Shown: positions 1,529 to 63,692, numbered from the stretch's first letter. The stretch is DNA of 64,000 nt from Stegostoma tigrinum (GCF_030684315.1 NC_081363.1:26786116-26850115), one strand, 5' to 3'. Program-made: numbers and translations. Notes: generated from the sequence alone by a model not told the origin.

Positions 1529-1529
1529 A

Positions 1530-10792: not shown

Positions 10793-11989
10793 ACACATGT
10801 GTGCGTTTTCACTTTGTGTGCTGAGCACCCTGGTTCAGGAGGAGAATATTTTGGTGAGCCTCCAGTTCTGTCCCAGTGAGCACGGCTGGATAAGACTTAT
10901 GTGGAAACCTTGGTGGAGATGTGGATCAGCCTTTTCTTCGATGTACTTTATATAATGAGCAACTCTGAACTGGGCTTGAGTCCCTGTTGTAGAATAGGCA
11001 ACGCACTAAAGTATTGTGCATTAATTCTACAGCTATAATTTCTCAAGAATCTATAATCTTTGGAGAAAAAGAGAAGGAAAATTTACTTTGCTTCTTGCAT
11101 TTTTTTCTTTAGAAACAGCTTTCAGGTCACCATTATCCTGAACAGCATTAAGTAGAATCTGTTGAGTGACCAATAACTTTAGTTAACAGACACCCATAAG
11201 GAAGTGACAGTGGAAGATGCAGGACGACTTGACTTTTCTGAAATGTGGTTTCTTCGTTTCTAGAATTCTCAAAATAGCACTTTAGATTTTATAAGAGACT
11301 TCTATTTTCACTGGCTGTACAGATTAGAAGTGGTTTAGGAAGGAAATAGATATAATTCCGGAGTGGAGTGAAAGTGGGAACAGGGTATAGAGTTGGATGA
11401 TTAGCAGAAATCATTGATGACTGAGCAGGCTCGAGGGACTAAGTGTGTGCTTCTCCGGCTCCTATTTTCAGTGTTTGCTGCAAACTAAACAAGCAATGAG
11501 CCTTGGCATAAATTCATTTTAAATTCTGTCACTGTGTGCATCTAGATTAAATTTAATCAAGCATCTCTGTTAATCTAGGCTAAGTTTATCATGTTCAGCA
11601 TCTCCAGTGTTCTTTTGTGGATGCATAACTAAGGTGGTGCCTGTTTCCTTTATTTTCCCTGAAGGCACAAACTGTTCTTAAGGTGTTTGCCAAGATCTGG
11701 TACTTCGCTTCAACTGTAAGCCAAGGTATTGGGCCCTAAGAGCCAGCAGCAACACTGACAAACTAGCTTGATTGAGAATAACTAACTCATGCAAACTGGA
11801 GATTGTATATTGACGTATTATCTACTGAGCCATAGTGTGTGATAGAGCTTGGTGAAGATGCCTATTGGATATCCTTTCTGCCAAATAAGTGTTGCGTTTT
11901 GCTAGCTGTCTGCAGTATGGAAGGTAGAATGATCTGGACAATCATTGATCTAATGTACGGTTGAGTTGACAAATGTTAACGTTGGAAGA

Positions 11990-12200
11990 GAGAGATAGCA
12001 AGAACTGCCAATGCTGGAGTCAGATAAGTGTGGAGCTGGAGGAACACTGCAGGGCAGGCAACACCGGAGGAGCAGGAAAGCTGACGTTTTGGATCAGGAC
12101 CCTTATTCAGAAATGCAAGAAATACTGCAGAAGGGTCTTGACTCAATGTCAGCTTTCCTGTTCCTCTGCCCAGTCTGCTGTATTCCTCCAGCTCCACACT
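11990..12200. mobile_element. Palindromic PLE-terminus mini-element (family C) with degenerate hammerheads on both strands
   Basis: Arms agtgtggagctggagga..ggaaagctgac / gtcagctttcctg..tcctccagctccacact. Direct repeat gttggaaga at 11981-11989 and 12201-12209. Confidence 0.8.
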
Positions 12201-12309
12201 GTTGGAAGAACTGCTTTAGTTGTGTGAACACTTAACACAGAAAGTTGCTGTAATTTGTGCCCGCAAAGTGTTTGCTACACGTTTAAGTAATGTTGTTAAA
12301 ATGTGAAGA

Positions 12310-12885
12310 ATAGAAAGAACCACATCGTACAAAAGAGGCCCTTGGGTGCATTGAATCTGCACTGACGTGTGAGAAACACCTAACCTTCAGCCTAATCCCA
12401 TTTACCAACACCAGGCCTGAACCCTTGAATGTAAAGTGCCTAGTGACCATCCAGGTACTTTTTTTAAAGGATGTGAGGCAACCTGCCGCTTCCATTTCCA
12501 CCCCCCCACCCCCCCCCCCCCCGTAGTGCATTCCAGAACATCACCACATTTTTTTGGGTTAAACAGGTTTATCCACACATAATTCACCCCACCCAAACCT
12601 TCTGCCCTTCACCTTGAGCCTGTGCTCCCTTGTGACTGACCCTTCAACTCGGAACTCGGAACCTTGTCCACTGTGCCCATGCCCCTCAATCTTGTACACC
12701 TCAATCAGATCGCCCCGCACTCTTCTCAGCTCAAACAAAAACTACCCAAGCCTTTCCAATCTTTCCTCAACTTAAACTTTCCATTCCAGGCAGTATCCTG
12801 GTGAATCTCCACTGCAACCCGTTCAGTGCAAAGACACCTGCCCTGTAATGTGGCAACTAGAAATGCACACAGTTCTTCAGTGTTA
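12310..12885 (-). mobile_element. CR1 LINE 3' fragment (older)
   Basis: Decayed paralogue of the adjacent young copy 12895-13412. Confidence 0.75.
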
Positions 12886-12894
12886 ACATGAGGT

Positions 12895-13412
12895 AGAACA
12901 TAGAACATAGAACATAGAACAGTACAGCACAGAACAGGCCCTTCAGCCCACAATGTTGTGCCGACCATTGATCCTCATGGATGCACCCTCAAATTTCTGT
13001 GACCATATGCATGTCCAGCAGTCTCTTAAATGACCCCAATGACCTTGCTTCCACAACTGCTGCTGGCAACGCATTCCATGCTCTCACAACTCTCTGCGTA
13101 AAGAACCTGCCTCTGACATCCCCTCTATACTTTCCACCAACCAGCTTAAAACTATGACCCCTCGTGCTAGCCATTTCCGCCCTGGGAAATAGTCTCTGGC
13201 TATCAACTCTATCTATGCCTCTCATTATCTTGTATACCTCAATTAGGTCCCCTCTCCTCCTCCTTTTCTCCAATGAAAAGAGACCGAGCTCAGTCAACCT
13301 CTCTTCATAAGATAAGCCCTCCAGTCCAGGCAGCATCCTGGTAAACCTCCTCTGAACCCTCTCCAAAGCATCCACATCTTTCCTATAATAGGGCGCCCAG
13401 AACTGGACGCAG
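12895..13412 (-). mobile_element. Young 5'-truncated CR1 (HER1-like) LINE 3' end with a (TTCTATG)n tail
   Basis: Open frame 12989-13375 ALERVQRRFTRMLPG..RRGDLIEVYKI..FFTQRVVRAWNALP is the CR1 ORF2 C-terminus. (CATAGAA)n at 12895-12920. Confidence 0.95.
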
Positions 13413-14487
13413 TAATTGAGGTAATTGAGTAAATAGACAAACTATGGTAGAATGTCCCACAAACAGCACTTTAAATGAAAATGTAATCAAGTCTGATCCC
13501 AAACAGCTATTAGAGACACTGGTTCACTGAATCTGATTAAAACTCACATTCTTGAATTCTTCTTACTGCTTTTAAGAGATCTAGTTTTGGACCTCCAAGT
13601 CTCTTCAAGTTAGACTGTCTCAATGACTGATTTTATGTCTTAGTAACTTCTGAGACTGAATTCCCTGGTATTCCTGAAGTTGCTTTTAAAATATATAATT
13701 ACTGGCAAAATTTCAACTTTTATCAACCTGTTATCTTCATTTTAACCTGCTCCTGAGTTTCTGTAAGCTCCAATGTTTCTCAATTAGATCAAGCAAATAC
13801 TACTTTGGTGGGCTTCTTTCACCCTGCTTTCAGTTGCACTGAACTGTCAATGGCTCCTAGGGCTTTTCTTTACCCTTTTCCACAGCATGAGCTACCACTT
13901 TTCAGTTGTCTAGAGTCTACTGACAACAGCACTTCTGCTTTATCATCTCTTAACCACAAACTGAAGCTAACTCTCTCGCTTCAACAAATGCCCTGAGAAG
14001 TTGAAACTAGGGAACCATCTTGAACATCCATCTCCGTGATGCATAACATACTCTGATCTACCCTTAACCTGTCTTTTAGGCTAAGGGAATCATATTTTAG
14101 AATTTTTTTTCTCTTGGATGAATTAAATGAACTTTACATCCTTTGAGTTCACTAGATTTTTTTGACATTTAGTTTTTAATTCCCAAAACAAGCAATATTT
14201 CTGGACTGTCATTACCACAGGCCGGGCTCCAGGTCAGCAAGGACTCTTAGAGTTTTGATCCTACCTAATGCATAACCGCAAACATTTAAGGCTCTGATGT
14301 ACACTAATTGTATTTATTCCATTTTTACTGTTAGTCTTTTATACTAAACAATCATATACTAAAGAACATGACCCAGCATCCTCTTTTATATACCCTGATA
14401 TCTATCTATCTCTAATTGGAATGGACCAAGCATTTTTAGCTTATCCCTACCTGTGTAAATATGATAATTTAAACTTGACGTTCTGAT

Positions 14488-14722
14488 TAAAACCAAAAGA
14501 ACTGTGGATGCTGTAAATCAGCAACAAAAACAAAGTTCCTGGAAAAGCTGAGCAGGTCTGGCAGCATTTGTGAAGGAGAAAACAGTTAACGTTTCGGGTT
14601 TGGTGGCCCTTCCTCGGAACTGATGGAAGTTCTGAGGAAGGGTCACCGCACCCAAAATGTTAGCAGCTGTGAAAAAAGAGTTACCAGACCTGCTGAACTT
14701 TTCCAACAACTATATTTTTGTT
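14488..14722. mobile_element. Palindromic PLE-terminus mini-element (family B) with hammerhead motifs at 14586-14620 (-) and 14628-14663 (+)
   Basis: Minus: gttCCGAGGAagggccaccaaacccGAAACGTTaac. Plus: gttCTGAGGAagggtcaccgcacccAAAATGTTagc. Arms are inverted. Confidence 0.8.
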
Positions 14723-14908
14723 CTTGAAGTTATTGTTCCTGTGTAACTGGTTCCTTGTACACTGAGGACCAAAACTGGACATTAGAATTCTAAATGTGGC
14801 CTAACCAAGACCTTGTACAGAGACAAAACAATATGGTTTATTGTAAGATAATAAAATATGAGGCTGGATGAACACAGCAGGCCCAGCAGCATCTCGGGAG
14901 CACAAAAG

Positions 14909-14940
14909 CTGACGTTTCGGGCCTAGACCCTTCATCAGAG
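14909..14940 (-). ncRNA. Minimal type I hammerhead ribozyme, intact core
   Basis: Reverse complement ctCTGATGAagggtctaggcccGAAACGTCag. Confidence 0.85.
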
Positions 14941-15885
14941 AGGGGAATGGGGTGAGGGTTCCAGAATAAATAGGGAGAGAGGGGGAGGCGGACCGAAGAT
15001 GGAGAGAAAAGAAGATAGGTAGGGAGGGGATGTCAGTCCAGGGAAGACGGACAGGTCAAGAAGGTGGGATGAGGTTAGTAGGTAGGAGATGGAGGTGTGG
15101 CTTGGGGTGGGAGGAAGGGATGGGTGAGAGGAAGAACAGGTTAGGGAGGCAGAGACAGGTGGGACTGGTTTTTTGATGCAGTGGGTGGAGGGGAAGAGCT
15201 GGGCTGGTTGTGTGGTGCAGTGGGGGGAGGGGACGAACTGGGCTAGTTTTGGGATGCTGTGGGGAAGGGGAGATTTTGAAGCTGGTGAAGTCCACGTTGA
15301 TACCATATGGCTGCAGGGTTCCCAGGCGGAATATGAGTTGCTGTTCCTGCAACCTTCGGGTGGCATCATTGTGGCACTGCAGGAGGCCCATGATGGACAT
15401 GTCATCTAAAGAATGGGAGGGGGAGTGGACATGGTTTGCAACTGGGAGGTGCAGTTGTTTATTGCGAATGAGCGGAGGTGTTCTGCAAAGCGGTCCGCAA
15501 GCCTCCGCTTGGTTTCTCCAATGTAGAGGAAGCCACACTGCATCCCAAAACCAGCCCAGTTCATTCCCCCCCCCCCCCCGCACCACACAACCAGCCCAGC
15601 TCTTCCCCTCCGCCCACTGCATCCCAAAACCAGTCCAACCTGTCTCTGCCTCCCTAACCTGTTCTTCCTCTCACCCATCCCTTCCTCCCACCCCAAGCCG
15701 CACCTCCATCTCCTACCTACTAACCTCATCCCACCTTCTTGACCTGTCCGTCCTCCCTGGACTGACCTATCCCCTCCCTACCTCCCCACCTATACTCTCC
15801 TCTCCACCTATCTTCTTTTCTCTCCATCTTCGGTCCGCCTCCCCCTCTCTCCCTATTTATTCTGGAACCCTCACCCCATCCCCCT

Positions 15886-15917
15886 CTCTGATGAAGGGTC
15901 TAGGCCCGAAACGTCAG
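15886..15917 (+). ncRNA. Minimal type I hammerhead ribozyme, intact core; predicted cleavage after 15915 (GUC)
   Basis: ctCTGATGA-agggtctaggccc-GAAACGTC-ag: CUGANGA box, stem II, GAAA, palindromic ACGU, NUH triplet. Confidence 0.85.
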
Positions 15918-16539
15918 CTTTTGTGCTCCTGAGATGCTGCTTGGCCTGCTGTGTTCGTCCAGCCTCACATTTTATTATCTTGGATTCTCCAGCATCTGCA
16001 GTTCCCATTATCAGTAATACATGGTTTATTGTAAGTTGAAAAAGCTCATCTGTGCAAAGCAAAAGTCCAATTTGTTTAGGATTTTGTTTCTCTTGAGCTT
16101 TTTATTCTCTTGACAGCTTGCATTTCAGTTTGATGTAAAATATACTTATTGATTTTTTGCCTATGTACATAATGTTGTTTATCTTGGTCATGTGCCATTT
16201 ACCAGAACACAAACCATTCTCCCAATGCATTTTAATTTGCTAATAAACTTGTTTGTCACCCTGCACCTTTTTATTTCTAATGGATTCACAACAAATTGTT
16301 TCGGCTATGCAGTGAAATGATCTACTTTGTATAATGTTATGAGACCTCACATGAAAATTGTGTGGTGAAGGCAGGTTGTAAGTGGCCATGCTATCCATGT
16401 ATTGACAGGGAACTTTGTCTTTAAGTTATTGCTCTGACACCTGTAGTTTGTTTTCCTTTCTTCAGTGTACTGCCATTATTTTGGATTCCAGCTGAGATTG
16501 ATGTGTATAACATATACTGTTCTGCCTGGATTCGAACTT

Positions 16540-16900
16540 GCATGTTCACTCATGTCCCCTAAACCTCGCTGAGCTCCCCTGACTCTAATGCTGCAGCAGC
16601 ATCTTGATTTTTAACAATCTCATCCTTCATTCCTTCCTCTTGCTCCTATCTTTGCGGCCTCTTTTTAGCTTTATGCTCTTGCAGAATTCTGCATTTGTAC
16701 AGCTCTGATTGCTTTATGCAGATTTGATTTCCTTTATTTTGTTTTTGTGGCTGTGCCTTTGATCATGAGGGCCCTGAGCCCTTGTCAACCTCCTTATCTC
16801 CCATGTTTGCTGCATTTGTTTTAAGAAGTGCTTCCTTTAAACCTAAGCATTTTGTTCACCTGTCCTTAGACATAGGAAATACATGTGTGAAATTTGGACT
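16540..16900 (+). mobile_element. Old L2-like LINE 3' remnant
   Basis: Weak resemblance to L2 ORF2 C-terminus/3'UTR; similar to 7110-7330. Confidence 0.35.
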
Positions 16901-18904
16901 GAACTAAAGTAAAACTGAAGTCACTGGAGTCTTACCAGAGCATAGAACTGTGGAGAGGGAGAGGGAGAGACCAAGCCTGAGGCAAGGGGAAAGGGTTGAG
17001 CAGGAGAAGCCTTTTGTGGTAACTTTGGCTGGTGCAGGAATTGAACCCATGATGCATTGCTGACCGGCCATTCAATCAACTCTACTGACGTGTACCAAAA
17101 ATTCACAGCTTGTAACGACAGGGAATAGCCTTTTTTTTTCCTTTGAAATGTGTTGCAAAGTTTTTACTCTTAAAGATGCTGTATGAATTCAAGTCAGTGA
17201 TTTGAATGATTTCAGTTGTTATCTTTTTCATTAATTCTACAGAGTGTGAGGACAGAGCAGGCTGGGAGCTGCTCACTGACTGACAGTATGCCTGTGGGAT
17301 GTAAAGACAGGATGTGGTTTCCATACTGCTTTTTGAAATCGAGCAATATAAGCCTTCTCAACTTGGGAATTGGGGATGGAGTACTGAATGGAATTGAGGA
17401 TAAATTTAAAAATCACTTAATTCATTGAAAATTAACCTAATCTCTTTAGAATGATCTCAAAGTGACGTCATGACAACAGAACAGGCGTATCCTCCAAGTG
17501 GTCTGTAAATTAAAGTTTTCTTGTATAGGCTGCTATTGACTTGTTGAGTGTTTTGATTTTTTTTAAAATGACCAGCGGATCAGCTTTGTTTTAAAACCAG
17601 ATCAAAGTTTAGCTTGGAATAAGTTAGAACAAAAGTTGTGCTGCATTTGTGTAGCTCTGATCGCTTATGCAGTTTTGATATGGTTGCAGACCTGCTTTGC
17701 TTCAAGATTTCCCTTTATGCAGTAAAAGCATTGCAACTTGAATTCTGATTCAGGACTTGCAATGGCTTTGTCATGGAATAGTCAGCGGTTGCTTCTACAA
17801 GTGGACAAAGCAGAATGAGTTTTGGCGGTGAGTGATACTCATTTTGTTTCACTTTTTAACAGCACTTAAGGCTGTGGCTCCTGTTTCTGGCTTAGTCCCA
17901 CAGTCCTTATGAGCCAATTTGCCCTGAATGTCTATCTGTCTTTGTCTACCTGTTGTGAAGCAGCATGTGTTTCAGCATGTTTTTCATGATATTCAGATGG
18001 TTCTTCTTTAAATGGCAATTCTTAGCCAATTTCTATCACAATTGGCTACAAAGTCAATTTTGCTGGAATTCCCTGATGTCCCTTCTGTCAACAGTCTGGT
18101 CTTGTATGGTTGGACTCAAGGAAACTTTGAGACTTCACACCTTTTGAGCGTTCAGTGGATATTCCAGGAAGCCTTGTATTATTTAAAAATCCTTTTCTGA
18201 TTTTGTTTCATAGTTGGGCTGCAGTTGAATCCACAATGTCATGTAATTTGGGGGCCATTTTGTAAAACATGTCCATTTTTAAAGAATGTTGGTTTTGATT
18301 TCATTATGTATGACAGGAAAGAACAGTTTGAAAACATGTTGTGGATTCCTCTTGTAAGTGAAAATCAGTAGATTCTGAATAATAAATAGATGCTTCTTTT
18401 TGAGGAGGTTTTAACTCTTGCAAGCTCTGGGAAAAGAGAATTGTTTCTATGGATCGCCTGGCATCCGTGTCCTCAGCTAAAGGAATGCAGGAGGACCAGA
18501 TGAATCAGACTTCTTAAATTTGAGAACCACTTAGGTTTTTGCATTCACCTTTCCATTTGATTAATAAATGGGCTTTTTTTTTGATGTTTCATATTGTACA
18601 AATGAGATTTACTTTTTAATATTAAAAGGTATTTGTACTTTTTAAAGAGCTTCAGAAATTTGCTCTTAGAATTCAAGGATTGTGTGTAGGATGAATGTCC
18701 TGGAGAAGCTCTTTAGGATCACATTAAAAATTGCTGCAGCGAACCACAGAATTAGAATTGGTAGGGGACCAAAAGCGTTCATTAGACTTACCGTGTCTGC
18801 TACAGCTCTCCAAATGAACATCTTGCTTGGTGCCTTCTGAGGTTTTCTCTCTAACATTTATTTTATAGACACAATCTTATCTAATTTTAAACTCTATCTG
18901 CCTC

Positions 18905-20000: not shown

Positions 20001-20007
20001 ATTAATG

Positions 20008-21499: not shown

Positions 21500-22372
21500 G
21501 CCTTTATTGCTCAGTCCTGTGAGTATAGGAGTTTAGAAGTCATCTTCAGATTGTGTGCAAAGCATCAGTGAGGCTCTTCTGGAATGCTGTCTCCACTTCT
21601 GGTCACCCAGTCACAGGAAGGATATTATAAAGTTGGAGTGGGTTCAGAAGATATTTACTAAGTTGTTGCTAGGTATGGGAATTTTTTGAACTATGAAGAA
21701 AGGCTGGATAGGCTGGGACCTTGTTTCACTGGTGTGCAGGAGGCTGAGATGTTTTTATAAACTTCTATAATGTGGAGTACAGATAGATTTAATGGTACAA
21801 TTTTAGCCTCACTGCGAAGCCTCTTCCAGGGATGCCTAACCTGAAGAGGTTACCCTCCTCCCTCCGGACCAACCTCGGGGAATCTCTCTCCCACTGCAAC
21901 TCTCTTGTCCGCCTCCCCCTCTATCCCTATTTATTCCAGAACCCGCTCCCATCTCCCTCTCTGAAGAGTCTAGGCCCGAAACGTCAGCTTTTGGGCTCCT
22001 GAGATGCTGCTGGGCCTGCTGTGTTCATCCAGCTCCACACTTTGTTATCTTGGATTTAATGGTAGTTGTCTTTTCCTAGGATGGGGTATTTCAAGACTAG
22101 GGGGCACCTTTTTTTAAGGTGAGAGGATAGAGATTTTAAAAAAGACACAAGGCGAATGTTTTACACTGAGGGTGGTTCACGTGTGACATGCACTTCCTGA
22201 GGAAGTGGATGTGGCCACAATTACAATGCTTAAAAGACCTGTAAATAAGCACACGAGTATATGGAAAGGCTTGGACCAGGAGCAGGCAGGTGGGGCTAGC
22301 TTACATTAGGATTATGTCCAGCACGGACTGGTCAGATTGAAGCACCTGGCTCTGTGCTGTATGACTGTATGA
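21500..22372 (+). mobile_element. CR1 3' fragment split by a PLE insertion
   Basis: ORF2 C-terminal motifs on both sides of 21798-22052; 3' tail ctgtgctgtatgactgtatg. Confidence 0.8.
21798..22052 (+). mobile_element. 255-bp PLE family A insertion with a hammerhead (21959-21987, 3-nt deletion) and a 12-bp TSD
   Basis: TSD gatttaatggta at 21786-21797 and 22053-22064; ctCTGAAGAgtctaggcccGAAACGTCag. Confidence 0.85.
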
Positions 22373-22479: not shown

Positions 22480-22577
22480 AATTTCTGAAGAAGGGCCTAG
22501 GCTCACAACGTCAGCTTTCCTGCTCCTCTGATGCTGCGTGGCCTGATGTGTTCATCCAGCTCTACACCTTGTTACCC
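22480..22577 (+). mobile_element. Short PLE terminus (family C) beginning at a degenerate hammerhead
   Basis: CTGAAGAagggcctaggctcACAACGTCag. Flanking repeat gaaatattag at 22462-22471 and 22592-22601. Confidence 0.7.
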
Positions 22578-22659
22578 TGGGGGGGTGGTGAGAAATATTA
22601 GTTTGGCCAAAAAAAAACAACTTTCCTGAAACTATGGGTGAAGCACATGGTAGCACCAC

Positions 22660-24330: not shown

Positions 24331-24426
24331 ACCAAGTTTTTTTTTAAAAGGAGGGCTAAAATTACGAATGTCTTAATGGATTTGCTTGAATTGGCTGTCA
24401 CATGTTTATAGAGGTAGAATTTTGGT

Positions 24427-24565
24427 AACAAAAAAAAGTTGCTGGAAAAGTTCAGCAGGTCTGGCAGCATCAAGGTGAAAACAGTTCGTGTTTAGGGGCT
24501 GGCCCTTCCTCAACTTTATTTTTCCTGATTTTACAGCATCTGCAGTTCTTTCAGTTTTTATTTAT
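24427..24565. mobile_element. Collapsed palindromic PLE terminus (family B), 13-bp TSD
   Basis: TSD gtagaattttggt at 24414-24426 and 24566-24578. Confidence 0.75.
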
Positions 24566-25005
24566 GTAGAATTTTGGTGTCAGGTTCATATTTAGAAATA
24601 TGCAAAATATCTTATTGTCAAAATGTTCTGTGAGGACAATTGACTCTGCTGCCAGCTTAAAGCCATAGTGGTCAGCGCAAGACAGTTTTAAATACTTTTG
24701 ATTTTTTGTTTTGCACGCTTGTTTGCTCACTTATGACCAAAATGGGCTGAATCTTTGGCACGACCGACAAAATGAAAACAAACAATTTGTGGTTTTAACT
24801 GTGCAGTTTAAAATGATTGCAAATACTCACTTAATTCTTGCTGTTGTGCTTTGAGGAAAAAAATGTTTTAGAATTTTTTTTGCTGGAAAGTAGAGGCTGA
24901 TCTACATTTGATGTGGGTCGGTAATGTTTTTCTTAAACTTTATTGCCTTGAAACTGTGTATATTTCTGTTTTTCACTAATTTATCCTGTCCTTTTCTCTT
25001 TCTAG

Positions 25006-28365: not shown

Positions 28366-28384
28366 CTGTACGGTCGGTTGGTGA

Positions 28385-28921: not shown

Positions 28922-29018
28922 GAGAGATAATGGGAACTGCAGATGCTGGAGATTCCAAGATAATAAAATGTGAGGCTGGATGAACACAGCAGGCCAAGCA
29001 GCATCTCAGGAGCACAAT
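28922..29018 (-). mobile_element. PLE family A terminal fragment, truncated just downstream of the hammerhead cleavage site
   Basis: Near-identical to 31771-31866; direct repeat tgaagtaga at 28913-28921 and 29020-29028. Confidence 0.85.
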
Positions 29019-33844: not shown

Positions 33845-33928
33845 CCAGGAGGCTGGAAGAACACAGCAAGCCAGGCAGGATCTGGAGGAAAGGAGAAATA
33901 AATTTTTGGGTATGACCCTTCTTCAGGG
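33845..33928 (-). mobile_element. Short PLE terminus with a decayed hammerhead, inside a possible solo LTR (~33700-34315)
   Basis: Reverse complement cCTGAAGAagggtcataccc.. followed by a PLE-type tail. The LTR call is weak. Confidence 0.5.
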
Positions 33929-35019: not shown

Positions 35020-35600
35020 GAAATATAAACAAAAAGTGATGGAGACACCCAGCAGATCTGACAGTAACTGTGGAGAGAGAAACAGTAAACATTGAGTCCA
35101 ACCTGAGGGGTGACCTGATAAATGCCTACAAAATTGAGAGGGTGGATAATCAAAGGCTCTTCCCCAGAATGGACAGGTCAACGACGAGGACACAAGTTCA
35201 CGGTGAGAGACGGAAGTTTAGGGGAGAAGTGCACAAACTTTTTCGCACAGGGTGGTGCGTGCCTGGAAGGCTGCCAACGGAGATGGTGGAATTAGGTGCG
35301 TTAGCAACTTTTAAGGCCTATTTTGATAGACACATGAATGGGAGGTGAGCAGAGGGATAGAAACTGCATGGGCAATAAGTAGCAGGTCTAAATAAGGACT
35401 AGGAATCAATGCAGTCTTGGTGGGGTGGGGGTGGTGGTGGGCCTGCTCCTGTGCTGTATTGTATCTCCTGTTCCAAAGGACAGGCCTGTTGGGCAATGTT
35501 AACTGTTTTTCTCTTTCCACAGATACTGCCAGACCTGCTAAATCTCTCCATCACTTTTTCTTAGTTTTTTTTCAGTCCAACATCTGTAGTTTACTTTCTA
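35020..35600. mobile_element. Family B PLE palindrome (arms ~35020-35100 and ~35495-35600) with a CR1 3' end (~35101-35470, +) at its centre
   Basis: aaaaagtgatggaga..gtggagagagaaacagt is inverted relative to actgtttttctctttccac..tctccatcacttttt; LRGDLINAYKI motif lies between them. Confidence 0.7.
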
Positions 35601-36519
35601 TTTTATAGAATAACTTAGTCCTCCATTTAAAATTTAAAAATCAAGTCTTTACAAGTTACAGTATAATTGGTTATCGGGGATGCATTGAGATTGGGCGCTT
35701 GGCAGTAAATGAAAATTGCCAGTTTCCTCACTGCAGTAGCAAGAATGAAATTAAAATATTCCTTTCTTTTGAAGTATTCTGTAACCAGCACAGGTCTGGA
35801 GCCTTTTGACCTCTCTCTGTTGTGATTGAACATTCAGAGGAACATACTTTGACTACCAGTATTGGAGGAGAAGGTGATTGCAAGGTTGATGGTGAGGTGC
35901 AAATCCTTTTAATGTTCAAAAATAGATTGCCCCTAGTTAGCTGCTAGTTGGAATTTCCTAACTCTGCTCTAAGTAGTTCCTGATGAGGCTTTAGAAGTTT
36001 AGATGTAGTTCTGTTTCAGAGCTGTGAAATAGAAACTGGTCAAATCGCGATGAATACCAGGCGATTGTTCCATCTCCCGTTTTCGTGCAGCAGTTTCGGC
36101 ACCAGGTTGTAGTTTGTTTCTGTTACTGTTTATACTGAGAAGGGGTGGAGGTGAGAACATAAAGCGCGTTGGCTCCCTTTGTAAGACTTGATAACACCTC
36201 TAGGGCTAATCCCAGCACAATTATTATGGGGTATGGTTTTCAAAACCTTGTAAGGAATGAGCATGTGAACCTGGACTACTCTTCCTTTTTTTGGTTGTCC
36301 TGTAATCATGACTAATGGTAGTCAGCGGTGACTGTAAGTATTGCTTCAGCATAGTGAAGCATCGTATATTGTATCACTGTTTTGCCACCACTGTTGTGTC
36401 TCAGCTCTTGCGGGTGTGCACACACGCGACTGGCTGATTTCGAGCTCGCTCTCGCTCATCCCATTTGGAGGGGTGTATTTTGGAGAAAACAAGTTATGTA
36501 CAGAAGTAGTACTTTCTAC

Positions 36520-41860: not shown

Positions 41861-41924
41861 AAGAATGATTTTGATTTTATTTTCAAAAGTTGCACTAGCA
41901 ATTCACAAGGAACAATTATTAAAA

Positions 41925-42108
41925 TAAGTCTGGAGCTGTAGGAATACAGTGGAGCAGGAAAGCTGACGTTTCGGGTCGGGACCCTTTTTCTGACGAGTCG
42001 TGACCTGAAACGTCAGCTTTCCTGCTCTGATGCTGCCTGGCCTGTTCTGTTCCTCCAGCTCCACATTGTTATCTCTGACTCCAGCATTGGCAGTTCTTAC
42101 TATCTCTG
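41925..42108. mobile_element. Palindromic PLE mini-element (family C); + strand hammerhead at 41988-42016; 13-bp TSD
   Basis: gagcaggaaagctgacgtttc / gaaacgtcagctttcctgctc; CTGACGAgtcgtgacctGAAACGTCag. TSD aattRttaaaata at 41914-41926 and 42113-42125. Confidence 0.85.
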
Positions 42109-44104
42109 AGTGAATTGTTAAAATATGTTTGTCACCCTGCAGTTTCAAGCTTTTCCTGTTTGAATTGTTAATCCAAGAATTTTATCAAAGCAAAGCATCA
42201 CACAAGTTGTGTGTATGCAACTTAATTCTGATATGTATCGCTGCTAACATACAAAGAACATTTTTTTTGCATAAGCATAAAACTTCCAAAGATTCCACAA
42301 GTGTTCCTAGAATTGTAGCTATTAGCTTGTTCCTGTTGTCTGTAGAGGCTCTGTTTCGCAGAGTTCAAAAAGATAACATTTTGATTTCTGTCCATCATAT
42401 CACTTTCCTCTTGCTGTGCAGAACTCTGTTGTTTTACAGCTTTTTTTAGTCAGAGAGAGGGAGAGAGAGAGAATTGGCAAATTTCAGTGACACACTCCTA
42501 ATCTTTGTGCATTTCCCAGTCATTGTCTAAGCAGTCTGTATTCTTTAGCAAAGCATCCTTTTGCTTCATGGTGATCATGATTTTCCCTTCACTGATAATT
42601 GCTGCATTTATATCATCATATGAGAATTAGTCACCACCAGTGTATTGAAGAATCATCAATTCCTGGATCTGTAATGCACAGAAGTTACTAAATGGTAGAT
42701 CAAATGCTGTCATCTTAACTAGGTGCCTTTTGTTTTGATGGCAAACCACATCCTCTTGTACAAATGTAATGCTTGATCGATTTAAAGAATTGAGCTGAAC
42801 TAATATGGAATCCAGAGTGATGACTTCTGCATAGAACTTGAATGATATTTGTTTAATTGTGGTGATTAGTAATGGAATGAGATCTCTTCCATCAGTGAAA
42901 TACTGTAATTTGGTGTTTTAAATGCTAATTAGACCCAGTAGTTTTGTGGTAGTTAGATTACAGAGGTTGTGGTTAATAACAATCCCACTATAACTTTGGA
43001 AACTTCTATTAAGCTTTTTAAAAATTTAGAGAATTTTTAGAATAAATCTGGTTTTGGCAAGGTTGCCATTTTTTTGAGACCTGATCTGCCATTGACCTTT
43101 CTAATAATGACCCTTGTTTTAGAAATGATCTAGCCATCATTCACTCACTCACATGGTGTTAAACAAGTATGTCAATTTCACCGCCTCGAGGGACATGGGA
43201 ACATCAACGGGAAGTTGTGCACCGTCTTGATTTGGACATTATTGACCTCCCTTTTAATGATTGTTTGATCAAGATCCCGGAAAACTGCACTTAACAGCAT
43301 TGTGGAGCTACCTTCATCAAACATATAGCAGTGATTCAAGAAGAACCAAAGATATTTAGCAGGTAGAAAATACGTGTGGGCCTTGTCAGTGGTACCCATA
43401 CCCTAAGAGTAAATTGGAAAGAAATAATAGCATATTTTATGTTGTTAGGTAGTGTGAAAGTACTTTCAATACAAGCAATCATTTAACCAAAGAGTTTAAA
43501 AATAAATAGAAAAAAAACCCCTTGGTTTTAAAAAGTTGCAAGATTTACTTTTTTAAGACTTATGTTTTTTGTAACCTTGATGGAAGAGAATTTGACGGTT
43601 TTTATAACCAAGTCTAGTCATGTACATTGTGTTCTCTGTCGCAACCTTGGACATTGTAGAAGTACAGTACAAATCAAAGTTACATATGGCAATTTATATT
43701 CGTCTAAACCTGACTGCACATGTGGATTGTAGTCAATGTATAAGCTTTGTGGTTCAAAACTAATTAGGACTGTTTTTATGACACGGTACCTGAAACTGGA
43801 GAATGGATTCATTATTGCATAACAGATTACTTCTGTTTGAAAAATGGGAGTAACTTTCCATAGGCTTAAATTTCCTACTTTTTTTTTTTGTATGACCATC
43901 TTTTGAACTTAATGTGGCTTCCACTGAAATGAACCTACATATTGGCCTCTAATTTCTGTTTTGGGGGTGTAGAAGTCAGCCAGTTTTCCCATTCTGGAAC
44001 CCTGCAAAAATCCTTGCTGCATATGCCTGAGTGCAAATTGAGGGTAGGTTTGGGCTTGGCTGTGATTTTCCTCTCCTATTGATACTTTGCTGCCAAGCAT
44101 GAGG

Positions 44105-54500: not shown

Positions 54501-54554
54501 CCATTGTCACAACTCCGTTGGTAACTGTGCAGTGGAAAACAAGACCCACTTTTT

Positions 54555-55500: not shown

Positions 55501-56202
55501 GTGCTGATCGCTCTTTCTACTTGGAGCTGATGCAAAGTTTTAAATTTGTGTTGTTGTAGCTGATTTGAACTGAAGAAAAGTTTCAGCTGCCAACCTGCAA
55601 TTTGATTTGAATTTTTCAGCGTTAGGGTACCATCTTTCTCTGTCTGCTCATCTATAAGTGATGGTGGATCTAGATGATCGATTTAAGCCATGTGCCTTTT
55701 AACATACAACCACAAAATAATTGAGAAGTAGTCAAATGACGTCTCTATTGGGAAATATTGAATAAAATCCTGTAATTCCCTTGCTCATTGCCCAAAAAAT
55801 AGTTGTTTCTCTTAAATGATATTTATAGTGAATCTGAAGCACAGTGTAATTCCAAGAACGCAGGCTATTTTTAATTTTTGAATCATGTACACAGATGACT
55901 GACTAATGTGCATGCTGGAGGATGAGAATTTCCTTCTGTTCCACTATCTCTACCTCTCTGCCACCAAAATGCTTCAGCTTCAAGTGCCCATCAATTATCA
56001 CCATGGATTCTCTTTCTCAGAGCCTAATCATAAGGTTACGTGGAGAGTGGCGCGGCACAAAGTCTTTGTTTCTCAGTGGTACCTGGAGCTTCTATGTACA
56101 TCACTGACCAAGAATTTGCATTTCTAAAGCACCTTTTTTGAGCCTTGGGATCAATCCAATGACCTTTTCAAAGACTGATTTTTATCCTTTTTGAGGTGTA
56201 GC

Positions 56203-56362
56203 CAACACCATGCAGAGCTGGAAGAACACTGCAGGTCAGGCAGCATCAGAGGAGTGGGAAAGTCGATGTTTCGGGTGGGGACCCTTCATCAGGACAGCCT
56301 GCTGTGTTCCTCCAGCTTCACGCTGTGTTGACTCTGACTCCAGCATTGCAGTTCTTGCTATC
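56203..56362. mobile_element. Palindromic PLE mini-element; - strand hammerhead at 56262-56295; perfect 12-bp TSD
   Basis: Reverse complement gtcCTGATGAagggtccccacccGAAACATCgac. TSD ttgaggtgtagc at 56191-56202 and 56363-56374. Confidence 0.85.
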
Positions 56363-56409
56363 TTGAGGTGTAGCTGCTATTGGGACATAGGAATCTTCTC
56401 TGCACTGAA

Positions 56410-56830: not shown

Positions 56831-57839
56831 AAATTTCTATAAAACATAAATGTTCTTTACTAAAGAGGTTTTTAGGGAGGGAGTTTTAATAAAGCTGATT
56901 GTGAGAGAGGCTAGGTTCCAACCGTTAGTGGAAAATAAATCATTATCTAATTTATTTCTTCAATACAAGTGGATGAACTGGAAGACCAGCCATTGTGTTT
57001 ACTTTTTTAAAAAAAACTATTTGTGTTCAGTACACTAAAGCATCTGTTTAAATAGTCATTAAAGAAATATCAGGAAGCATCTTGCAAAAGAACAGTAAAA
57101 CCGTTGTTTCCATGACGCACCAAGTCATGTGGTTCGAAGACACATGGGGTGGTGTATGATTCGGTCCTTTTAATTTGATTTGTATCAGCTTGGCAAAGAC
57201 AACATCAGGCAGGGATGCATTCCTTTGCTTTATGTCAAAAAATGCTTTATGTATGGTAAAACATTGTGCAGACATCCCACTGTCTGTGGCCAGGCATGAA
57301 AGTATTGGTGATTGGGTTATGACGTGAGCACGCCTTGCAGATGGTCCCTCCTCAGTGAAACAGTCAGTGATGCAGCGTCACATCAGCTGCAACTCACCTC
57401 TTTGTCAAGTTGGGCGAATCACTACCAGAGCCAACAAAAGCTTGTTTGGAGATTATAATAGTGCGTTTGAGATGTTGATGTGGGTGTATTGAAATATTCC
57501 AGTACGTCATAGAAGTTAAAGCACCTGCTGGGGTGGTTTATTAAAGCTTCCAGCTGATCAAATGTCATGCTAACTCCATTGCACAAGGTCTAAATAGAAA
57601 GACAATTTAACCTGTGAACTAATTTTTTTATGGTGCAATGTAGTACTTGTTCTTCACATTTTAATTGTTAGATTTCTCTGTCTCTTCCTTTTTATTTTTA
57701 ACATATAAGCTGACCTTTAACAGTTACAAAATGAATGAGTCGATGGTATGATTGCTCAATGTGCCATTGTCATTCTGTACTGAAGTGAATGCAATGCAGT
57801 AAGTGTGGTTAGAACTATATTGATAGCATAAGGGAATGG

Positions 57840-58630
57840 AACACCCACATCCAGCAACTTGGAACTATGCCGAGAGAGGAGGAGGAGGAGGAGGAATACC
57901 TCCTACAAGTGTTCAAGCATAATGGGTATCCAAAGAACTGGGTCAGGAGATGCCTACAGGAAGAGCATCAGAAAGATTCTACACGCCCCGACACACTCAT
58001 CACACTACCCTATAACAGGAACACATCAGAACTCACCAAGACTCCTATGACTGCTGGCATCAGAGTGGCACACAAGCCCATATCAACCCTACGACAACTG
58101 CTCACCCGAATTAAAGACCTACTCCACCATGGACAGGACCAAAGTCATCTACAAAATCCCCTGCAGAGACTGTGAGAAACACTACATTGGACAAACAGGA
58201 AGGAAACTAACAGCAAGAATGCATGAACACCACCAACTGGCTACAAAAAGACACGACCAATACTCACTCATATCAATCCACGTGGACAAGGTGAACCATG
58301 ACTTTGACTGGGACAACACCAAGATCCTGGGACAGGCTAGGCAGAGACAAGCACGATAACGCCTGGAAGCATGGCACTCCACATAGCATGCTATTAATAA
58401 ACACATTGAACTCAACCCCATATACATTCCACTATGGAGGAAACCCAGAAGTGAGGCAATCCCAGAGTTTAAAAACCCAGGTGGGAAAGCACACAGCTTC
58501 ATCAGAGGCTGCACTGAGCATGTTACCAAGCACGGTAACGAAACGTCTGCGGAACAACAAACCAGCTCGGCGAGTCAACCAGCCTCAACACTCTCAACCC
58601 GAGCTACAGATCTACTCCAGAACCTTAAAT
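57840..58630 (+). mobile_element. Penelope/Poseidon-type PLE 3' part (short linker + GIY-YIG)
   Basis: NGYPKNWV..ITLPY..GIRVAHKP..VIYKIPCRDCEKHYIGQTGRKLTARMHEH..FDWDNTKIL; no Cys-rich linker. Confidence 0.9.
58511..58550 (+). ncRNA. Minimal type I hammerhead of a different PLE clade (G8C variant)
   Basis: gca-CTGAGCA-t-gttacc-aagcac-ggtaac-GAAACGTC-tgc: stem I gca/tgc, 6-bp stem II. Confidence 0.8.
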
Positions 58631-59884
58631 TATTGAATTAGCTTTATTGCCATGTGCACTTGAATGAGTGCAGTAAAAAGTTTGCAATGGTGCCATCTTC
58701 TATACAAGATACCTAGGTACAGATGGTACAGAATTGAAAGAATAATAAATAAGACCCCAGCATGAGAAGGAGAAAGGGAAAGAAAGTACGCTATTTACAG
58801 CCCTGTCACCCTCCAGTCCATGCCAGCACGTAGCCTGCAGACCCTGCTGGGCCTCAAATATGGAGGCCTTGACTCCAGCCTGCAAGGGCCTCACCACCCC
58901 GCGCAAGCCTCCAGTCTGGACCTCTCCTGCTGGGGTCAACTTCTAAGTAGTCTGTAAACAAGTGGTCCATTACCTTCTCCTGAAAACCTCCTGCACTATT
59001 CACAAAATGCACTTTTAACGTGAGTGATCCTGTGGAATCAGATGCACCAACTACCCCCTTCACTGCTGTGATCGCAGCACATTACACCTCAAATGTCCCT
59101 TTCTGTAGATAGTAATTATACTATTGTGTATTTTGTCAATAGTATAAGATTGCTAAAGCTTTCTGCTAAAGTTAATTTCACAGAAACCTGTTGTACTTAG
59201 CAAGGGCAGAAACCTGTTCCCATCCTAGTTGCCTGCCATTTTAACTTGGACCTTCTCATAAGGAATCCTTTGTTAAAAATCCTGAAATTTCCAATGCAGC
59301 CCCATTCTGGGAGCATTATCCTCGGAGTGCAGTGCTTTAAGAAAACCAACCACCTTCTTTGGAAAGATGCCAACAGCAGTAAATAAACAATTTTATTGAA
59401 AGGCTCGATGCAGTAAAAGCTCTTGTAGTTAGATGTGTGGGGGCTGGAAGACCATTAACATGTCAAGTGAATATGTCAGGACATATAAATGTGAAAAAGA
59501 TTTGAATGCCTCTGAAAAATTTTTCTATTTGGCCACATGTGCTCTAACATTACAGTAAGTGATGTAGGGCTAGTCTGCAAAATTACTGAAATAAAAGTCT
59601 ACAATAACCCTTAACTGTTTAAAAGAAGTGATGCAAAATCATGGCTTAAGTGTCTAAACTAGAGATCTTAATTCTGAGTTAGAACTGTAATATATTTTCT
59701 AATTTGGAAGCTGGGAGTCGCAATTATGTAGCTGCAGAGAGAGCAAGATCTGTTTATTTTATGGTATGTTCTGTCAATACTTTAAACACTACACTTTTTT
59801 TAATTGTAATTTATGCATCAAGTTCCTGTACAGTAATAACTAGTGGCTGCAGCTTTGTGTGACCTTGGCCTTCACCTCTAGGAA

Positions 59885-60100
59885 CTGAGTGATAGAGGCT
59901 GGTACGATTGCCACATTTAAAAAGACATCTGGATGGATATATAAACAGGAAGGGGTTAGAGGGATATGGGCCAAATGCTGGCAAATGGGACGAGTTTTAT
60001 ATAGGATATCTGGCTGGCATGGACGAATTGGACGGAAGTCTCTGTTTCTGTGCTGTATCTCTCTGTTTCTGTGCTGTATTTCTCCTGTGACTCTACAGTA
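59885..60100 (+). mobile_element. CR1 3' end with a 21-bp tandem duplication (60039-60079)
   Basis: VIEAGTIATFKRHLD motif; tctctgtttctgtgctgtat occurs twice. Confidence 0.8.
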
Positions 60101-61949
60101 GTAGGTATTTAGTTGCTTGATTGGACTTTGGATTATCTTGTTTAATATACGTCACCAATGTCAGACAAAATTCCAGCAGCACTAGAAGTGTTGCAGAGGA
60201 TGGATTTTAGTGGTAAAACTTGCTGAAGGTTTACTTGGCATAAAATTATGGTGTTTCATTTCAATTGTGGAAAAAAATTGTTAAAGGATGAATTGCTGTT
60301 TCCACCACCACCACCGCCCCCCCCCCAACCCCAGCCAATGTTGAGAACAGTTATTTGCCTCTCTTTTAGAGAAAGACTAATCTGATTTGAAGTAAGCAGG
60401 ATAGCACCAGTAAAACCTGTTTCTTCCCATGCCTTGTTATAATATTTTCTCTTGCATTTTAATAAACATTTCCTATGTTAATTTAGAGAGCTTGTCACAT
60501 GTCCTTGTGTGCAGCTACAAGTGAGAAACAGTAATTAGCACTTTGAAAGTTAATTGTTTGGTTTTTCTTTTTCAAAATTTGAATTAGAATGTTATGAAAA
60601 AAATTAAATTGATTGCTTTAATGTTACCCTTGCAATTTGCTTTCTCTCTAGTTTGTTTTTGATTATTCTTTGTTCTGTCCCCACTCCCATATTGGAATGA
60701 AATTGTCTAAAGAAGTTTTTTTTTAAATTTATAAATGTCCTTTGAATCTTCTCCGCTGTAGCCATTGATTCATGTTGGAGTGTGTTTCCACACTGTCAAG
60801 GCACTCTTCAGTAGTTGGCGGCTACACTTCTCATGCGGTATCCTCTGGGGATAGTCTACTTTAAATTGTGGGATTTGTGGGGAGAAGGAGGAAGGTAGAC
60901 AGCCCCCACAGGAGTATCTGATTCCATCTTTACCCAGCATCCATGTGGGCATTTTTGTTTGAAAGGAATGAAATGATAATGGTCAAACTATTCAGGGACA
61001 GCTCCCTTCTGATTTGGTAGTATGCGGGTGCCGAGATCAGACATAAAACCTGTATGGCTTATTTCTGATAAGCACTTTAAATCACTGGTAATGTAATAAT
61101 AGTTGCTTTTTATTTCAGAGTTTCTGGAAAATTCCATTTGAGCATTCAAGGCCTGGAGATCCTGTAGTATAATTGCTGTAGAGATTTAGTAATTACTCAT
61201 ACGATGTATTGACAGGAAAAAAATTAAATTTAGTTTCCCTCCGCCTCCTCATATGAATCATAAAGACCCCATGATCTCATTCCAAAAACCGAAGAGAAGT
61301 TCTTCCTGGAGTTCTGGCCAGTATTTATTCCTTAACCAAAATCCCTCTTAATTCCAAAGAAATTACCTGATCTTGCATTTTTTTTGTTGTACAAACTTGA
61401 TGTTTGTAAATTGGGTGTTGTATTTCTGAGGTCAGGAAAAGATGTGAAACTATTCCTTGAGTCTTTCCCACTTCTGACAGATGTTGGGGATATTTGCTAT
61501 TTTAATGACATTGAGCGTGTTTTGGTGCTTTTTTGGATGTTGTTTTTGTCTTTGCTTTACAAACACCAGAATTCATTGCAGCTGCTGAAGCAATGAAATG
61601 TTGCAGTGTTCAAAATTTAATGATCATGATTTCTGTTTAGTTTTTAAAAGGACCATTTGGGAGCTTGGCTATTTAGTTTGGCCACAGTTTGGATTTAGTG
61701 GAAGTGTTTTCTGGCTAGTTTTACAGGTAGATTTGTATGTGCTAAATGTGTCCTTCTTGTTTAGCCAAGACTATCATGATCACACTCTTTTGTAAGAGCC
61801 CTGTGACTTACTTGGGACTTTTCAAAACATGAAGTCCTGTCAATGTAGCCTCATGACATCCACTCAAGTCATCTCCTGAGACAGTTCCTCGTGATCAAGG
61901 ATGACTTGCTTCTGATTTCAGTGGGCTAATCTGTCATCTCTAAATCCAA

Positions 61950-62490
61950 TGTGATAGAGTCAGAGATTCATACAGCATCCGTGTGGGCACTTTTTTATTA
62001 GTGATTTGATATGGTTCAAACCATTCATGGACAGCTCCCTCAGTCCAAGTAGTCCGTGCTAACTAAATTTCCCAAACTAAACTAGCCCTACTTGCCTGCG
62101 TTTTTGGCCCATATCCCCCAGTCCATTCCTATTCATGCATCTATCCAAATGTCTTTAAACTGTTGTAACTGTACCTGCCTCTACCACTTTGCCTGGCGGT
62201 TCATTCTACAAATGAACCACCCTCTGTGTGAGAAGAGTTGCCCCTCTGGTCCCTTCTAAATCTTTTTCCACTCACCTTCAAAAATATGTTTTGAACTCCC
62301 ACCACCCTAGGGAAAATAGCTTTTTTGCGATTCACCTTTTATCAATACCCCTTGTGATTTTGAAAAAAAAACCTAAAAAATTGCCCCTCAACCTCCTAGG
62401 CTACAGTGGGGAAAGGCCCCAGCCTGTCCTCGTATCTCAAACCCTCCAGTCTGAGCAACATCCAGGTAAATCTTTTCTGAACCATTTCTA
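61950..62490 (-). mobile_element. CR1 3' fragment
   Basis: Collinear with 23415-23945 and 41170-41480. Confidence 0.8.
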
Positions 62491-62599
62491 GATTCTGCTA
62501 CCATTTGAGAGGCTGGTTTGAGTTGATTTTTGGGTTTTGTGACCTCACTTGAGTCTTGGACCTTGCCCCAGCATGTATCCAACAACATCTCCGTTCTTG

Positions 62600-62822
62600 T
62601 GATTATTGAAACTGCAGATGCTGGAGAATCCAAGATAACAAAGTGTGAAGCTGGATGAACACAGCAGGCCAAGCAGCATCTCGGGAGCACAAAAGCTGAC
62701 GTTTCGGGCCGAGACCCTCCTTCAGAGCTCTGATGAAGGATCTAGGCCCGAAACGTCCGCTTTTGTGCTCCCGAGATGCTGCTTGGCCTGCTGTGTTCAT
62801 TCAGCTTCACACTTTGTTATCT
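62600..62822. mobile_element. Loop-less 190-bp palindromic PLE family A mini-element with back-to-back hammerheads, a one-sided 33-nt tail and a 16-bp TSD
   Basis: Arms 62633-62727 and 62728-62822 centred on GAGCTC. TSD aacatctcYgttcttg at 62584-62599 and 62823-62838. Confidence 0.93.
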
Positions 62823-63029
62823 AACATCTCTGTTCTTGATGCCTTATTGAATCAGACTTCTCCCAGGGCCATGCAAAAGTTGGTAGGAATGTTTGATCTC
62901 ATGCTTAAGGTACTGTTTTGAAGCTTTTCCATTGTCCTGCTTGAAGAGCATCCAGTTCTGAGGAGTGATGATAACCGATGACTTGTTCTGGTCTTCCCAT
63001 GTAAATGCAACAATTAAGAAGGCACAATG

Positions 63030-63545
63030 CCTTTTCCTCGGGCTGGTGAGGAAATTTGTCATGTCCATAAGGTCCCTCACCAACATCTACAGATGCACCA
63101 TTGAAAGCATACAGTCCAGGTGCATAACGGCCTAGTATGGCAACTGGTCTGTCCAGGACCGTATGAAACTACAGAAGGTTGTGTGCACAGACCAGACCGT
63201 CATAGAAGCCAACCTTCCGTAGACTCTATTTACATGGCTCACTGCCGCAGAAAGATGGCCAACATCATCAAAGACCCATCACACCTTGGGAATGATCTCC
63301 TAAAGCCTCTTTCTTCAGGCAGAAGATACAGAAGCCTGAACACATGCACATGCAGATTCTGGAATGGCTTCTCTTCAGTTGTTTTCACACTGTTGAATGG
63401 ACGCTAGCCTCAAATAATGTAACCTGTATTCCTCAAAATCTTTTTGATCTGTACATCCTTTACTAACTGTGATTTGCCAATGCTGCTTGTAAACAAAGCT
63501 TTTCATTCTGCTTTGGTACGCATGACAATAAATCAATCGATCGAC
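63030..63545 (+). mobile_element. Rex1/Babar-type LINE 3' end
   Basis: TNIYRCTIESI..CITA*YGN..KLQKVV and ANIIKDPSH..SGRRYRSL motifs; acaataaatcaatc tail. Confidence 0.8.
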
Positions 63546-63594
63546 CAAGCCTCCTGCTATGACTGATTTCGAGGTGTTTCAGTTTTGTTGGCAC

Positions 63595-63692
63595 AGAACC
63601 AGAAATGGCTGGAGGAACTCAGCAGGCCTGGCAGCATCGTGGAAAGAGAAGCAGAGTTAATGTATCAAATCTAGTGACCTTGCTTCAGAACA
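63595..63692 (-). mobile_element. PLE family B terminus with a decayed hammerhead; another terminus starts at ~63958 and runs off the window
   Basis: gctggaggaactcagcaggcctggcagcatc..gagttaatg..gtgaccttgcttcagaac. Confidence 0.65.

Follow-up and report, generated by a model that had tools for sequence, protein, structure and literature searches.

A 64,000-nucleotide (nt) stretch of DNA from Stegostoma tigrinum (GCF_030684315.1 NC_081363.1:26786116-26850115), referred to throughout as "the window", contains short repeats, many of them inverted, that carry a hammerhead ribozyme (HHR)-like motif. These "stubs" are the 3' ends of endonuclease-bearing (EN+) Penelope-like retrotransposons (PLEs). 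The breaks at which they stop are concentrated at the 5' edge of the hammerhead motif, and comparison of the sequences makes it likely that this edge corresponds to the beginning of a capped RNA template, which would start about 4 nt before the motif's core, and that the head-to-head "hairpins" were produced by two separately primed cDNAs that ran off this RNA and were joined.

Breaks at the 5' edge of the hammerhead motif

The repeats fall into two PLE families, A and B, rather than the three distinguished in the first-pass annotation of the window; the supposed third family is an older subfamily of A. Positions are numbered from the C of the CTGANGA core (+1), with 0 assigned to the preceding base, so that the predicted cut in family A falls after +28. 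As the motif lies 65-100 nt from the 3' end, every short copy necessarily breaks "near" it, and for this reason we used break rates, i.e. the number of breaks per base among the arms still at risk, calculated in a genome sample of 140 evenly spaced 10-kb stretches (1.4 Mb) from 17 large contigs of the 3.2-Gb genome. Young and old arms were separated by sequence identity over a fixed interval.

The sample contains 304 family-A arms, 229 of which reach +10. More than half of the latter (125) break between -7 and +10, while only 4 of the remaining 104 break between -30 and -8. Past -7 the break rate drops about 30-fold, from 0.059 to 0.002 per nt, and the peak exceeds the flanks in rate by a factor of 9.9 (p=2e-57, with arms treated as independent). 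The peak is 11-fold in the 141 young A arms and alike for inverted (40/63) and single (17/54) arms. In family B, 54 of 69 arms break between -7 and +3, as do 36 of 47 of the better-preserved ones; alignments of old B arms may end early. The upstream edge is also seen among the hairpins that keep the start of the core on both arms (7,031 matches genome-wide): in the 50 listed ones, whose junctions were read by eye, at most one or two have an arm extending past -7, although the search pattern allowed -15. Even copies that retain the start of the open reading frame (ORF) use this edge. In 28 scored copies of this kind (30 were fetched, of which 2 aligned elsewhere; these are best hits, not a random set), 18 have a direct copy of the 3' end in front of them, i.e. 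they reach the upstream "pseudo-LTR" of a tandem; 5 of the 18 begin between -7 and +10, 2 begin downstream of this interval and 11 upstream of it.

The sharp peak of truncation and inversion points at the HHR, which the first-pass annotation had proposed to look for, is thus found in two families, far above chance and above the effect of proximity to the 3' end, and the at-risk rates do not show the smooth distribution that would have spoken against it. Ordinary smooth 5' truncation, or an alignment artefact at a low-complexity boundary, could be suspected from the closeness of the motif to the 3' end and from the poor alignment of old copies upstream of it. The roughly 30-fold drop past -7 is at odds with such an origin, as is the persistence of the peak in young arms whose upstream part aligns. 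Moreover, the breaks adjoin an inverted partner or a target duplication, the latter found in 10 of 25 single arms compared to 4 of 200 random intervals; this explanation can practically be dismissed.

Signs of a probable RNA start

In Pol II core promoters a TATA box lies about 30 nt upstream of the initiator. The only match to TATWWAW in the family-A unit is TATTTAT at -33, and the 1-kb family-B reference has ATATAAA at the same position; the boxes of the older A subfamily lie at -33 to -36. The A and B boxes are located 29-30 nt upstream of -3, a position that falls within initiator-like sequence (as judged by commonly known consensus motifs): TCAGTT in B, CCATTT in the older A subfamily and a pyrimidine-only stretch in young A. 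The sequence therefore has a TATA-like box about 30 nt before an initiator-like element. In the window this arrangement can be followed in one arm of a young family-A pair:

15854..15861, plus strand: TATTTATT, a TATA-like box with a putative promoter role; the break edge follows 30 nt downstream.
15884..15887, plus strand: family-A break edge, positions -3..0, predicted RNA start.
15888..15915, plus strand: minimal type-I hammerhead motif with CUGAUGA, stem II, GAAA and a palindromic ACGU, predicted to be cut after 15915; the layout is that of PMC4209133.

The second sign is an additional G at the break. Young A copies have C at -4 in 70,437 cases and another base in 8,457; all base tallies at -4 and -5 are hand counts over the first 100 listed matches, which come from the first contigs. 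In the first 100 of the 8,457 we counted 69 G, 5 A and 26 T, compared to 31, 26 and 43, respectively, at -5 (p=2e-7). Continuous copies with a purine at -4 number only 366, with 47 G to 53 A among the first 100, and with so few of them the G at -4 belongs to the junctions and cannot be supplied by point mutation. When 30 loci were fetched and inspected by eye, 4 were substitutions in continuous copies and 6 had a G that the partner arm could supply; G was found at 16 of the other 20 break junctions, which the partner arm cannot explain. Family B shows the same excess, with 50 G to 31 A, compared to 13 G to 40 A in the control (p=4e-5). In L1 and SVA, an untemplated 5' G has been attributed to copying of the cap (PMC3287187).

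These observations suggest the following course of events. The TATA-like box and the initiator would drive a Pol II start at the edge, and the extra G would be the copied cap. The element's protein would nick both strands of the target about 17 bp apart and prime from each end, using two internal start sites on the RNA; both cDNAs would run off the 5' end of the RNA, after which repair would unite them by way of short microhomology or filler. As short template, either the 5' portion of a unit-length RNA or a short transcript that starts in the 3' pseudo-LTR of any copy is conceivable. Tail length reveals no difference between these two sources (14 of 60 arms end at or beyond +134 in one group and 6 of 28 in the other, p=0.42). 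A minority of templates, roughly 4%, may end at the ribozyme cut instead.

Several points weigh against this explanation. The peak is about 17 nt wide and not confined to a single base, and about half of the A arms pass the edge, which would require read-through RNAs or template jumps; however, the scar expected of a jump, a G in place of C at -4 in continuous copies, was not found (the 47 G to 53 A mentioned above for the first 100 of 366), and a control at -5 with 295 copies gave a similar result. P values are computed as if paired arms were independent, and the base tallies carry the limits of hand counts stated above. The older A subfamily shows no excess of G (30 G to 48 A at -4 compared to 25 to 26 at -5, p=0.28), although AATT microhomology may mask it there, and the partner arm in a hairpin is AG-rich and can itself supply a G. 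The family-A box is not a strict TATAWAW, and it reads AATAAA on the other strand. The Penelope promoter of D. virilis is internal and TATA-less (PMC2377424). Finally, the similarity of the two arms of a pair in their subfamily markers, described below, could also result from gene conversion or from co-active subfamilies.

As a separate observation, the family-A box at 15854-15861, read as AATAAA on the opposite strand, could also function as a poly(A) signal for antisense transcripts; family B is without it.

Hairpin formation and the role of the hammerhead

The 3' ends form two classes, at about +92 and about +128, which differ by the known tail. Among the 77 head-to-head pairs of the sample, 73 have exactly one tail, and nearly every pair consists of one end of each class. 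A target duplication accompanies 58 of the 77 pairs, with a median of 17 bp in the young ones. In the 73 pairs the tailless arm is longer in 32 cases and the tailed arm in 19, while in 22 cases the two are within 3 nt of each other. As either arm can be the longer one, the pairs cannot be derived from a single folded-back cDNA. The arms are matched nonetheless: in 172 pairs scored for length, both are short in 120 and both long in 42, and only 10 are mixed, compared to the expected 69, and the two arms agree in subfamily markers at 92%, compared to 59% in shuffled pairs. Matched lengths and shared markers fit two primings on one RNA segment.

It has been proposed for PLEs (PMC3846280) that the second arm is made by one cDNA that folds back or by self-priming on an antisense template. 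Such an origin would account for the head-to-head junctions, which are palindromic with short microhomologies, and for the markers common to both arms. A copy made in this way, however, can neither exceed its template arm nor gain a tail, as would be required by the lengths given above, and many arms are separated by non-palindromic fillers. We regard fold-back as a distinctly improbable source of the pairs; the antisense-template variant of self-priming retains a small probability.

The first-pass annotation further interpreted the hairpins as a SINE-scale class of repeats, and their abundance is indeed SINE-like: extrapolation from 56 in 1.4 Mb gives about 128,000 short A hairpins genome-wide, and a few non-trivial junctions recur twice among the 50 listed. 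A non-autonomous, SINE-like family copied as a unit is, however, difficult to reconcile with the 33 distinct junctions in the same list, in which the commonest, found 6 times, is the simplest join; with sizes ranging from 109 to 240 bp and no common consensus across the junction; with the one-tail rule, which holds equally in long pairs; and with stubs that break at the edge and lack the upstream box. Since the junctions vary between copies, the hairpin is rebuilt at each insertion. Copying as a unit is therefore very improbable, and the stubs are insertion by-products and not a new class of element, in agreement with the published layout of PLEs. Inverted partners predominate among the short A arms: upstream of 197 such arms we found an inverted copy in 124 cases, a direct copy in 3 and neither in 70.

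Two further observations concern individual pairs. Several long-long pairs break at near-identical positions on both arms, namely -1156/-1155, -257/-257 and -182/-186. In another locus (L151) the 3' untranslated region (UTR) of a family-B copy is interrupted at about 9150-9460 by a short family-A hairpin that has a flanking repeat of its own, so that this A insertion is later than that B copy.

The motif itself has the features of a type-I hammerhead, i.e. CUGANGA and GAAA boxes, stem II, a palindromic helix III and a UH cut triplet; helix I extends over 4 bp in family B but over only 2 bp in family A. It fits the minimal hammerhead of PMC4209133, and self-cleavage is predicted on this basis. 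Rfam returned no hammerhead match at gathering scores, with only chance hits in 14450-16050. The hammerhead region folds no better than shuffled sequences (z between -0.2 and +0.4 in 4 of 4 folds).

According to the first-pass annotation, the ribozyme fold or its cleavage determines where cDNA synthesis stops, and neither can be upheld for the main peak. Run-off at a cleaved RNA end would produce arms that start at +29. The main peak, at -7..+10, is found at the motif's 5' edge, some 30 nt further upstream than the predicted cut, where the whole core, located upstream of the cut, has already been copied; self-cleavage can therefore be considered refuted as the main route. A minor spike at the cut does exist: 3,494 arms start at +29, compared to 699 at +30, 584 at +31 and 176 at +28 (the last obtained with a stricter filter), of 171,331 arms reaching +27, i.e. 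about 3.7% compared to 0.4-0.7% after a rough correction. Also, among 50 listed short hairpins, 21 have as their centre the AGCT after the cut, compared to 2 with ACGT and 6-7 with GGCC. AGCT is, however, palindromic, and as it centres 21 of 50 hairpins, microhomology alone could favour it and is a live alternative for the spike. Only 2 of 128 young arms in the sample start at +29, and in a lizard element no RNA reads begin at the cut (PMC11167929). The spike, comprising roughly 4% of arms, may therefore reflect either true cleavage or microhomology, and we lean slightly towards cleavage as a minor route. In one reversed locus (L107, about 470-570) the hairpin junction is a short tandem microsatellite that runs into the predicted cut site at +29.

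Alternatively, the folded hammerhead, or an element protein bound to it, might stall the reverse transcriptase (RT) and so set the main peak. In favour of a stall, the distance between edge and core is the same in A and B, and the 5' strand of helix I in B terminates precisely at -3; breaks are already more frequent at +4..+10 (in B across +11..+40), and the lizard ribozyme needs protein to cleave, so a protein acts on this region of the RNA (PMC11167929). A fold should, however, block RT on its 3' side, whereas the peak falls after the core has been copied; the stability of the fold is that of shuffled sequences, and stalling provides no account of the extra G or of the box at -30. We consider a stall unlikely, if less so than fold-back. 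Stalling at a G-quadruplex in the cDNA was also considered and rejected: the edge precedes the making of the G-runs, and B has none there.

Run-off from a capped RNA thus remains the preferred explanation of the edge. A more elaborate version, on which we are divided and slightly inclined to doubt, assumes an LTR-like plan, in which the capped RNA, driven by the TATA box and initiator of the pseudo-LTR, would have the hammerhead's first base as its own, and a protein dimer would prime two cDNAs on that segment from the ends of a staggered cut. If it holds, the stubs would document, on the scale of the genome, target-primed "strong-stop" DNA, with the RNA start mapped to within a few bases, and the small second class would record ribozyme cleavage in the germ line.

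The elements of the window and their known relatives

All 11 places in the window cited in the first-pass annotation are PLE 3' termini. By walking outward from the window we obtained a family-A unit of about 3,450 bp, arranged head-to-tail. In EN+ PLEs a single ORF encodes RT followed by a C-terminal GIY-YIG domain; two natural copies (L012 and L070) match both RVT_1 (E-values 4e-4 and 2e-5) and GIY-YIG (2e-3 and 4e-3) in this arrangement, with all matches below the Pfam cut-offs. A Pfam search with five broken frames from the window found no family, and a PDB sequence search found no match. In the window frames, C-x4-C-x2-C precedes the GIY-YIG motif. According to PMC8557442, CX2-5CxxC between RT and the endonuclease marks the Neptune and Nematis clades; judged by this motif, the family-A frames carry a Neptune/Nematis-type linker. 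Family B is a separate PLE, with 35-53% protein identity to A over longer aligned blocks.

In 9 of the 11 places at least one arm breaks within -11..+7 (at 33845 as read by eye), which largely bears out the claim that the breaks fall near the HHR; the exceptions are 28922-29018, which breaks at +34 and is without the core, and 35020-35600, which is interrupted and cannot be placed. The common hairpin layout claimed for all of them applies in full to four clean two-armed structures centred on the core (11990, 14488, 41925 and 62600), while two are lopsided (24427 and 56203); of the other five, one is split by unrelated sequence and the rest consist of a single arm. Most places had been noted to carry flanking direct repeats, and we found such repeats, of 9-17 bp, at 8 of the 11, compared to 8 of 200 random intervals scored by the same rule; the proposed range of 9-16 bp is exceeded by the median of 17 bp in young pairs. 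The PLE-derived features of the window are as follows ("." denotes paired arms on both strands):

1525..4070, minus: long copy of family A; both its RT and its GIY-YIG frame are broken, and 3' UTR, hammerhead motif (1631) and 3' end are present.
4099..4182, plus: short inverted arm (+11..+93) on the 5' side of the 1525..4070 copy, forming an uncommon long+short pair.
7342-7369: inverted tail piece beside the family-B 3' end listed next.
7368..7560, plus: family-B 3' end covering -91..+100; TATAAA lies at 7427-7432, the initiator-like TCAGTT has its A at 7456, and the core starts at 7460.
11981..12209, ".": older family-A hairpin with a 9-bp direct repeat; tailed arm 11991-12111 (minus, 0..+128), tailless arm 12130-12200 (plus, from +6).
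14486..14722, ".": family-B hairpin, no direct repeat found; tailed arm (minus, -11..+134), tailless arm (plus, from -3).
14831..16037, ".": young family-A long-long inverted pair with a 19-bp direct repeat; 14845-15538 (minus, -525..+94) and 15604-16021 (plus, -257..+134).
22484..22580, plus: older family-A single arm from 0, with a 15-bp imperfect direct repeat.
24414..24582, ".": family-B lopsided pair with a 17-bp direct repeat; arm +2..+97 (minus), tail piece +90..+135 (plus).
28923..29017, minus: young family-A single arm +34..+128, without the core, with an 11-bp direct repeat.
33845..33928, minus: old A-like single arm whose start, by eye, is close to the 5' edge of the core, with a 10-bp direct repeat.
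35020..35604, ".": B-like inverted pair split by about 400 bp of unrelated sequence, its break not assignable.
41914..42128, ".": older family-A hairpin with breaks at +7 and +5 and a 16-bp direct repeat.
56189..56374, ".": old A-like lopsided pair with a 14-bp direct repeat; arm from +1 (minus), arm +57..+117 (plus).
62584..62838, ".": young family-A hairpin with a 16-bp direct repeat; both arms start at -1, the tailed one ending at +125 and the tailless one at +93.
63593..63691, minus: family-B single arm -2..+96, no direct repeat found.

In total the window contains 31 termini in its 64 kb, for which the first-pass annotation had estimated about one per 3 kb. The genome sample has 1 per 3.2 kb, hence the window is not special, and about 1 million termini are expected genome-wide by extrapolation.

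Other parts of the window are worth recording. At 21816-22056 (plus) 93 bp from the 5' region of family A are fused to -54 of a 3' end, as in an internally deleted or "jumped" copy. In 57813-58600 (plus), a PLE-like coding fragment without a match in a tblastn search with the family-A protein is followed, near 58515-58547, by a decayed motif that resembles a hammerhead but has another stem II; fragment and motif possibly represent a third, unrelated PLE family missed by the first-pass annotation. An ordinary LINE 3' end, with an RT C-terminal frame and a short tandem-repeat tail, occupies 12893-13441 (minus).

In the cited papers, the route by which PLEs form tandem and inverted insertions, the nature of the template RNA and the role of the hammerhead are open questions, and the stubs would help to settle the mode of insertion. 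The roughly 1 million termini estimated above preserve the outcome of earlier insertion events. From them, fold-back of one cDNA seems less plausible than priming at both ends of the target, the start of the RNA can be predicted with an accuracy of a few bases, and ribozyme cleavage of a small fraction of templates is hinted at.

The literature that we searched, which excluded most subscription papers as well as Repbase and Dfam, contained neither a study of a PLE breakpoint peak nor these shark-type palindromes. An inverted copy, a tail and a target duplication have been described for PLEs (PMC8557442; PMC8969392), and the insertion unit of EN+ PLEs (PMC8557442; Pen2a_Av of Adineta, PMC3846280) resembles that of the shark: copies are 5'-truncated, occur in partial tandems, have an inverted copy next to them and a tail of 30-40 bp on one side, and are accompanied by a target duplication and by palindromes at head-to-head junctions; a putative TATA box and initiator were noted in the pseudo-LTR of Pen2a as well (PMC3846280). 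The inverted insertions of the shark differ from the published unit: most are double stubs of about 200 bp, their edge is hard as judged by measured break rates, and an additional G is present. The accessible text of PMC8557442 and PMC3846280 gives no breakpoint distribution and favours self-priming on an antisense template.

The Poseidon element PAc of Anolis, studied in vitro (PMC11167929), is similar in that two internal start sites delimit a tail just downstream of the hammerhead and in that both strands are cut and extended, and there ribozyme cleavage is not required. It belongs to another clade, while family A has the CX2-5CxxC linker and the shark data contain a small spike at the cut site; the accessible text on PAc includes no map of cDNA stops or of the joining of products. 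The minimal hammerheads of metazoan PLEs (PMC4209133) share the core boxes, an extra base before stem II and the palindromic helix III, and they occur as thousands of solo motifs, with opposite-strand pairs 100-700 bp apart in Schistosoma. That work, in its accessible portions, contains no shark-type genome or breakpoint analysis and proposes cleavage and circles as the role of the motif.

L1 twin priming (PMC11702581) likewise involves second priming from the other target end, a kept target duplication and microhomology at the junction, and complete 5' ends of L1 carry an untemplated G (PMC3287187); the two L1 cDNAs, however, cover different parts of the RNA, whereas the shark arms copy the same segment from two fixed starts. 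The non-LTR retrozymes (bioRxiv 10.64898/2026.07.22.740005), which have been reported in one chondrichthyan, are also non-coding, hammerhead-bearing and derived from PLE pseudo-LTRs. They form head-to-tail tandem arrays, whereas the shark stubs are dispersed head-to-head pairs or single arms, and we rejected a retrozyme identity on the grounds that only 3 of the 197 short A arms have a direct upstream copy. The hairpin layout has thus been published before. Taken together, the edge as measured, the promoter-like distance of the box and the additional G favour run-off from a capped RNA over a block by the ribozyme.

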